This document shows, in pieces, positions 33,395 through 33,714 of a stretch of 59,477 nt of DNA. The notes under the pieces were generated by a model, which was not told the DNA's origin, did not search any database, and was given only the letters and a program-made list of their open reading frames with translations. Origin of the DNA: Octopus sinensis (Eukaryota); the NCBI RefSeq assembly GCF_006345805.1, contig NW_021833095.1, forward strand, positions 1 to 59,477. Reading direction: 5' to 3'. Within the stretch, counting starts at the first letter, position 1; each line of letters begins with the position of its first letter. The translations under genes and the position numbers were made by a program.

Positions 33395-33439
33395 CTAATA
33401 ATTTTCTTTTTGTTTTTCTTTCTCTCTTTGTAGGTAAGT
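33395..33439 (+). promoter_or_regulatory. Candidate recursive splice site (ratchet point): juxtaposed 3' and 5' splice sites
   Basis: CTAAT branch-point motif at 33395-33399, AG-free pyrimidine tract ttttctttttgtttttctttctctctttg (33402-33430), TAG (33431-33433), then the perfect donor GTAAGT (33434-33439). Lies in non-repetitive sequence. Confidence 0.65.
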
Positions 33440-33714
33440 TGGAATGAAATCTGTGTTTACTACAATAATGGTTTCTCCCGAATGTATACAGAATGTAAAG
33501 GATTGCAATTGGCACCAATTTTAAGACAGCGTGACCAATATAAAGGAAAGGGCTGTTGCAGTGATTTGTGAGTAAAATGGAATTTAGATGGAGGATGAGT
33601 GATAAGAAAGTAAGAACTACTCCAAGGTCTACTAGGCAATATCTACCAGAAGAGGTTATTTGTTTTGTGGGTGTGTGTATGTGTGTATATATATTCTTTT
33701 ATTCTTTTGTTTGC

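Follow-up and report, generated by a model that had tools for sequence, protein, structure and literature searches.

Whether the giant introns of cephalopods are handled in the fly way or in the vertebrate way is the question raised by a short motif in the genome of Octopus sinensis. Recursive splicing has been shown in flies, at hundreds of sites, and in vertebrates, at about ten cryptic sites, and cephalopods evolved large neural genes independently. The stretch of DNA analysed here (the window, 59,477 nt) is an entire contig of the assembly, G000:C9566. A reading made from its letters alone (the sequence-only reading) had proposed that an acceptor directly followed by a donor at 33433|33434 is a ratchet point of recursive splicing, placed before a cryptic exon (RS-exon) in a very long + strand intron removed stepwise. 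The results described below support this interpretation through contigs joined at the acceptor, the position that a gene model gives the window, on the sense strand upstream of exon 2 of the Eph receptor gene, and a genome-wide enrichment of the motif. In our view 33433|33434 is likely a ratchet point, and the very long intron that it would divide on the sense strand is probably the first one of the Eph receptor gene.

The motif at 33433|33434

The site is composed of four adjoining parts:

33395..33399, + strand: branch-point motif CTAAT, with the branch A predicted from sequence at 33398 (-36)
33402..33429, + strand: polypyrimidine tract, 27 of 28 letters pyrimidines, AG-free
33431..33433, + strand: acceptor TAG; two likely-RNA contigs align from 33432, with 23 non-matching letters ahead
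33434..33439, + strand: putative ratchet donor GTAAGT, read from the sequence

Between 33392 and 33431 there is no AG, and TT occupies positions -6/-5 of the site. The consensus of donors is CAG|GTAAGT; joined to an exon ending in AG, the GTAAGT would give AG|GTAAGT, matching at least 8 of these 9 places. Strong 3' and 5' splice sites therefore adjoin at 33433|33434, behind a branch motif. The 401-nt region around the site matches the genome once, no other such site is found on either strand of the window, and none arises in 100 shuffles; the strict form of the motif, defined below, has a chance expectation of about 5e-5 per window. All that the sequence-only reading had said of these letters (the CTAAT upstream, the AG-free tract, the TAG with GTAAGT immediately behind it, their unique sequence and their being the sole case in the window) is thereby borne out. 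Across four sequencing runs with two organism labels no difference is listed in 33431-33439, against four in the 134 nt that follow the acceptor. An Rfam search of the window gave zero matches.

Contigs across the acceptor

Part of the stretch is present in 13 of the 24 sequencing runs listed, none of which is recorded as RNA. Four were examined: X9, X12 and X13, which come from two studies, belong to organism C and are RNA by the guess of the tool (the likely-RNA runs), and X1, a likely DNA run from organism A. The contigs are strandless, and those of the likely-RNA runs have a depth of 3-6.

Two likely-RNA contigs join exactly at the 33433 acceptor and read on into the downstream intron, a junction of the kind that the sequence-only reading had suggested looking for. 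Record 25 of X9 (study P6; 142 nt) is aligned over 33432-33550 and record 17 of X13 (study P7; 120 nt) over 33432-33528, each with exactly 23 unaligned letters before the AG; record 3 of X1 is uninterrupted across 33294-33657. The 23 letters together with AG and GTAAG make a 30-mer, so that both contigs start where the assembly graph would branch at k=31, a value that we take to be the one used and that is consistent with a bubble at 33551 (see below). The same exon end is accordingly predicted before GTAAG followed by a base other than T as well, most simply its own donor. A foreign stretch of 23 nt followed by AG, GTAAGT and intron fits the definition that 10.1101/006163 gives of the intermediate left by the first step of recursive splicing.

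Depth over 33311-33369 is 0 in the three likely-RNA runs and 16.4 in X1. This was considered as a saw-tooth and rejected, since uncovered parts of contigs prove nothing. Likely-RNA depth at 33370-33428 may come from pyrimidine-rich look-alikes at other loci, of which one 255-nt loose end is an example.

The candidate RS-exon and its downstream donors

Downstream of the acceptor lie the following features:

33434..33609, + strand: cryptic RS-exon with two candidate ends, of 134 nt (to 33567) or 176 nt (to 33609)
33568..33573, + strand: weak downstream donor TTT|GTGAGT, 5/9, unspliced in record 26 of X9 and record 9 of X12
33610..33615, + strand: second candidate downstream donor AAA|GTAAGA, 6/9, unspliced in the same two records

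The TTT|GTGAGT and the 134-nt segment that it delimits are present as the sequence-only reading had described them. However, that reading had called this donor a second strong one, which a match of 5/9 to CAG|GTAAGT contradicts, and its choice of 134 nt as the extent of the RS-exon does not hold to the exclusion of 176 nt, a second candidate whose donor scores higher. Both downstream donors are thus weaker than the regenerated donor, with its at least 8/9, as a cryptic RS-exon would have it.

Neither end, 33567 or 33609, is seen spliced in the likely-RNA contigs. In X9, the sum of the listed contigs and a two-allele bubble of 61 nt, which we infer at 33551, gives 5.39/8.76/8.47/3.79 against four bin depths of 5.39/8.77/8.48/3.79, an agreement to 0.01; were the bubble to stop at the donor, the bin depth would be 6.81. 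Taking into account that the bin depths are fully accounted for, no X9 contig is spliced at 33567.

Both lengths would shift the frame. As the sequence-only reading had stated, two frames of the 134-nt segment stop early and one stays open. The open frame, of 44 aa (P0001), is in phase 0, which is not the phase that a junction with Eph exon 1 would set; read in the phase of Eph, phase 1, the RS-exon gives G-K-L-E and a stop (TGA, 33445-33447). Four allelic differences are listed within the 134 nt: one is silent, two alter a residue, and the fourth is an insertion of one base after 33518. The 44-aa peptide has 0 matches in Pfam, 0 in PDB and a best score of 0.78 in the atlas, with no credible match. 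Its 7 representative matches are DUF285/BspA-type repeat proteins, which score through summed repeats and were rejected as homologues.

The probable host locus

The link to Eph comes from a single gene model, predicted in a related assembly: the Octopus vulgaris Eph receptor model P0014. It involves these parts of the window:

1..59477, + strand: likely host intron, comprising the whole contig, probably Eph intron 1
25596..29103, + strand: 146-bp satellite, 24 copies with 91% matches, source of the first 'exon' in four public O. vulgaris Eph models
53940..53969, + strand: third non-Eph 'exon' of P0014, within a stretch having a 79-88% copy on contig C1

The open 44-aa frame matches residues 20-63 of P0014 with 98% identity over 100% of its length, residues 1-20 derive from the satellite, and residues 65-74 from 53940-53969. 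The model therefore places three pieces of the window, 25635-25694 (or another copy of the satellite), 33434-33568 and 53940-53969, in the same order and on the same strand before Eph exon 2, which lies at C11324:10519-10592 (+); its later exons are on C26 (25.05-25.18 Mb, -), C1095 and C8061. Judged by this exon order, the DNA of the window lies ahead of Eph exon 2 in the O. vulgaris assembly, in sense orientation, and the piece at 53940-53969 would, with the 134-nt segment, tie contig C9566 to the Eph locus. The very long + strand intron of the sequence-only reading is compatible with this. That reading had also suggested mapping the window to an annotation; the model uses the 134-nt segment, in sense and upstream of exon 2. 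Counting 10.5 kb ahead of exon 2 on C11324, the putative Eph intron 1 would have at least 70 kb, and no true exon is seen across the 59-kb window. The Eph gene is spread over at least five contigs (C26, C11324, C1095, C8061 and C9566).

The composition of the strands was also compared. The + strand of the window has T>A and C>G skews of +0.086/-0.099, against +0.065/-0.097 for the Eph sense strand on C26, and T>A skew appears in 12 of 12 five-kb bins. In the flanks of ratchet-like sites T>A skew occurs in 21/27 cases and in those of control sites in 11/14, so that it is not discriminating.

Eph exon 2 begins in phase 1 and squid Eph reads ...ARE|VELL; hence exon 1 should end in GA(A/G)-G, which is compatible with the AG of the contigs. 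The search for exon 1 in the octopus assembly with the squid leader as protein query gave 0 matches, and three back-translated patterns gave 7, 2 and 2, none of them a signal peptide. A tblastn search that covered C26 25.182-25.545 Mb, the leading 30 kb of C11324 and the window itself did not find it either, and the one match to the Eph leader among short octopus proteins has an unrelated N-terminus. A signal peptide is present in squid Eph and absent from all three Octopus annotations examined.

Other variation was observed among cephalopod Eph proteins (P0017, P0019, P0020, P0152, P0153). Small alternative inserts comprise one of 14 residues in the juxtamembrane region and one of 12 in the kinase; there is also a 2-residue insert between FN3 domains, and squid has an extra Gly at the exon 2/3 border.

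The motif class in the genome

Genome-wide counts cover 2.72 Gb. The strict pattern Y16-TT-N-YAG|GTAAGT has 51 matches, and its reversed form 10. Since the window's own site, with one G in its tract, falls outside the strict pattern, 51 is a floor. The same acceptor pattern is found 14 times before eight GTTRRR hexamers (1.75 per hexamer) and 120 times before 48 GTANNV hexamers (2.5 per hexamer); genome-wide, GTAAGT after strong acceptors is enriched about 20-29-fold over control hexamers. Among the 100 of these 120 GTANNV matches that were listed, the commonest hexamer appears 8 times, and GTAAGA, GTAAGC and GTAAGG 3, 4 and 0 times (counted by eye). The sequence-only reading had suggested a count of such motifs by sense and antisense in long introns; the counts given here are irrespective of gene strand.

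Thirty of the 51 sites were fetched; four of them form one repeat family, and with three of these dropped 27 non-redundant sites remain. YTRAY stands at -38..-26 in 17 of the 27. Local shuffles have a mean of 6.8, with none of 2000 reaching 17, and of the 14 control sites only one has the motif (Fisher p = 7e-4). The stricter CTRAY gives a weaker signal (5/27 sites, equalled in 43 of 2000 shuffles). GTRAG at +20..+250 is found at 13/27 sites, with a background of 26-34% and 4/14 in the controls, which is no clear enrichment. Fifteen open frames that follow the 30 fetched sites were searched against Pfam; the one match, with an E of 0.017, did not pass the cut-off.

Large contigs carry 42 of the strict sites, and where two neighbours are no more than 2.5 Mb apart they are co-oriented, in 5 of 5 cases (p = 0.03). 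These pairs include C3:3895398 and 4014127 (+) and C18:51552796 and 51757657 (+), which are 119 and 205 kb apart; these two pairs are candidates for multi-step giant introns. A relaxed form of the motif occurs once in 562 kb of unselected DNA, and none was found in the other assembled pieces of Eph, several stretches of 40 kb and more included.

Some repeats carry similar letters. L037, L051, L058 and L062 belong to a dispersed family with 74-86% identity over 200-350 nt and have the full motif of branch, tract and TAG|GTAAGT; a mobile element of this kind could seed ratchet points. At G000:C1:16000550-16000893 (-) a tandem repeat contains four near-identical acceptor-like motifs, a tract with CAG|GTATCA, at a spacing of about 105 bp. 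In the window, an abundant interspersed repeat at 94 and 58601 (+) and at 45467 and 6639 (-) has an acceptor-like tract and CAG, then GTRAG about 68 nt downstream, and would constitute a ready-made pseudo-exon on either strand.

A proposed mechanism and its alternatives

It is proposed that splicing first joins an upstream exon, with AG as its last letters, to the 33433 acceptor, the RNA continuing with GTAAGT and intron, as in the likely-RNA contigs. The regenerated AG|GTAAGT donor would then win over the two weaker ones, at 33568 and 33610, whose part would be confined to helping define the cryptic RS-exon; its own partner would be either Eph exon 2 or a further ratchet point. After this second step the mRNA would retain nothing of the site. 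If the RS-exon were included by accident, the Eph frame would meet a stop after four codons, and nonsense-mediated decay would likely follow.

A different role for the 134-nt segment is given in the O. vulgaris models CAI9741190-93, where it is an ordinary coding exon 2 of Eph. This agrees with the 98% match of P0001 to P0014, the inclusion of the segment in all four models of that annotation and its one open frame, and is nonetheless scarcely credible. These models take their first exon from the 146-bp satellite, which it matches at some 20 places. In squid P0152 and P0153, by contrast, a hydrophobic leader resembling a signal peptide runs straight into exon 2, so that full-length squid Eph has nothing between the two; the remaining mollusc Ephs examined show the same arrangement. 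Moreover, the models of O. bimaculoides and O. sinensis carry different, unrelated N-termini, the stop at 33445-33447 falls in the phase of Eph, the alleles include a 1-base insertion and two residue changes against one silent, and the likely-RNA contigs traverse the donor unspliced. The segment is thus not a part of full-length orthologues, nor in frame, nor constrained. Taking into account the satellite first exon, the squid Eph devoid of the segment and the stop after four codons in the Eph phase, its use in O. vulgaris looks like a prediction artefact. As this is the sole annotation to include it, the constitutive inclusion as an ordinary exon, which the sequence-only reading had named as the contrary outcome, has not emerged, and the coding-exon reading is already largely refuted.

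The remaining alternatives keep the acceptor or the motif and change its use. It is rather unlikely that a real acceptor serves a cryptic terminal or poison exon, the RNA ending or decaying downstream and the GTAAGT not being re-used. The same contigs would be predicted as for the first step of recursive splicing, and AATAAA is present at 35099 and 36905; however, this would leave unexplained the 20-fold enrichment after strong acceptors of perfect GTAAGT, and not of GTAAGA/C/G. Slightly less probable again is a true ratchet point whose host is another sense-strand gene, or an lncRNA, upstream of Eph. Exon 1 was not located, the prediction may have fused adjacent loci, and AG is such a common exon end that its match is weak; yet three pieces of the window precede Eph exon 2 in consistent order and strand, and the lack of a true leader in all three Octopus annotations would be expected of a remote exon 1. 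It seems very improbable that the 23 foreign letters stem from an artefact or some other source, such as an allele of organism C that diverges upstream of the AG, adapter sequence or a leader added by trans-splicing, with the motif perhaps unused. Depth is low, and the DNA comparison comes from organism A while the likely-RNA runs come from C. Against this, contigs of two studies break precisely at the AG and do not extend into the tract; the acceptor is also the one used by the O. vulgaris model, and would thus be kept in that genome; literature searches on cephalopod spliced leaders gave nothing relevant; and the chance expectation of a strict site in a window is very low (~5e-5). A ratchet point in a long sense-strand intron, probably of Eph, is the reading that we retain.

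Comparison with known systems

Ratchet points with cryptic RS-exons are described within Drosophila introns, those of Ubx, kuz, Bx and luna among them (10.1101/006163 and the available parts of PMC8605326 and PMC6110457). Fly branch points span -36 to -21, and TT stands at -6/-5 in 196 of 197 fly ratchet points (10.1101/006163). The octopus site resembles these in its long tract with YAG|GTAAGT, its TT at -6/-5 and a predicted branch A within -36..-21, and also in a junction into an intronic AG|GT, putatively made by an upstream exon, the weaker downstream donor and the out-of-frame cryptic exon. The likely host is, moreover, the first intron of a neural developmental gene, and in the fly, first introns are over-represented among the recursive ones, according to the part of PMC6110457 available. 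In contrast, the candidate RS-exon has 134-176 nt in octopus and roughly 50 nt (under 100 nt) in the fly, and one site was found in a likely intron of at least 70 kb where fly segments average 18 kb (10.1101/006163; PMC8605326 and PMC6110457, available sections). The host is also a mollusc, with the site known from sequence and contigs.

For vertebrates, the accessible portions of PMC6224609, PMC5126111 and PMC8605326 report (from Sibley 2015) about 9-10 recursive sites in long neuronal genes, e.g., CADM2, and set out a model in which the regenerated donor competes with that of the RS-exon. With these sites the octopus one would share an RS-exon with a premature stop, a giant intron and, putatively, skipping by donor competition. 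As far as the available text of PMC6224609 goes, annotated RS-exons protected by the EJC in mammals likewise start with a partial donor, but are included in mRNA, whereas the octopus segment is out of the Eph frame and absent from squid Eph.

Enrichment of ratchet-point motifs has been computed in insects and sea urchin (PMC2773006, in the part available), and octopus resembles them in having an invertebrate genome-level excess of fused acceptor and donor motifs. In the same part, vertebrate large introns show no enrichment (ratio 1.5 or less), against about 20-29-fold in octopus, computed with a different control. To that survey, in whose main text 'mollus' does not appear, the octopus site adds support from a junction at contig level.

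Meaning for cephalopod genes

Recursive splicing itself is known, and the octopus site is a likely ratchet point in a phylum for which we found no report. Literature searches for recursive splicing in octopus, mollusc, cephalopod or squid, made in the main texts of open-access papers, gave nothing relevant, in line with the sequence-only reading, which knew of no characterisation in cephalopods. On balance, we lean towards the view that octopus, with giant introns in its neural genes, runs a fly-like, genome-wide recursive splicing, with about 45 ratchet points of the strict form and probably hundreds of the relaxed one, almost all of them having a perfect GTAAGT and being co-oriented in the same giant genes, of which the Eph site would be the first in a mollusc with support at RNA level.

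The finding also bears on a practical fault, since four public Eph models appear to have a false N-terminus built on the 33433|33434 site. If the above view is true, some cephalopod gene models are wrong, predictors having taken RS-exons for coding exons. With a used ratchet point in the gene of an octopus axon-guidance receptor and a motif class enriched across the genome, the mechanism would reach a third branch of the bilaterians and, if recursive splicing is indeed genome-wide in octopus, ratchet points would be a general invertebrate answer to long introns.
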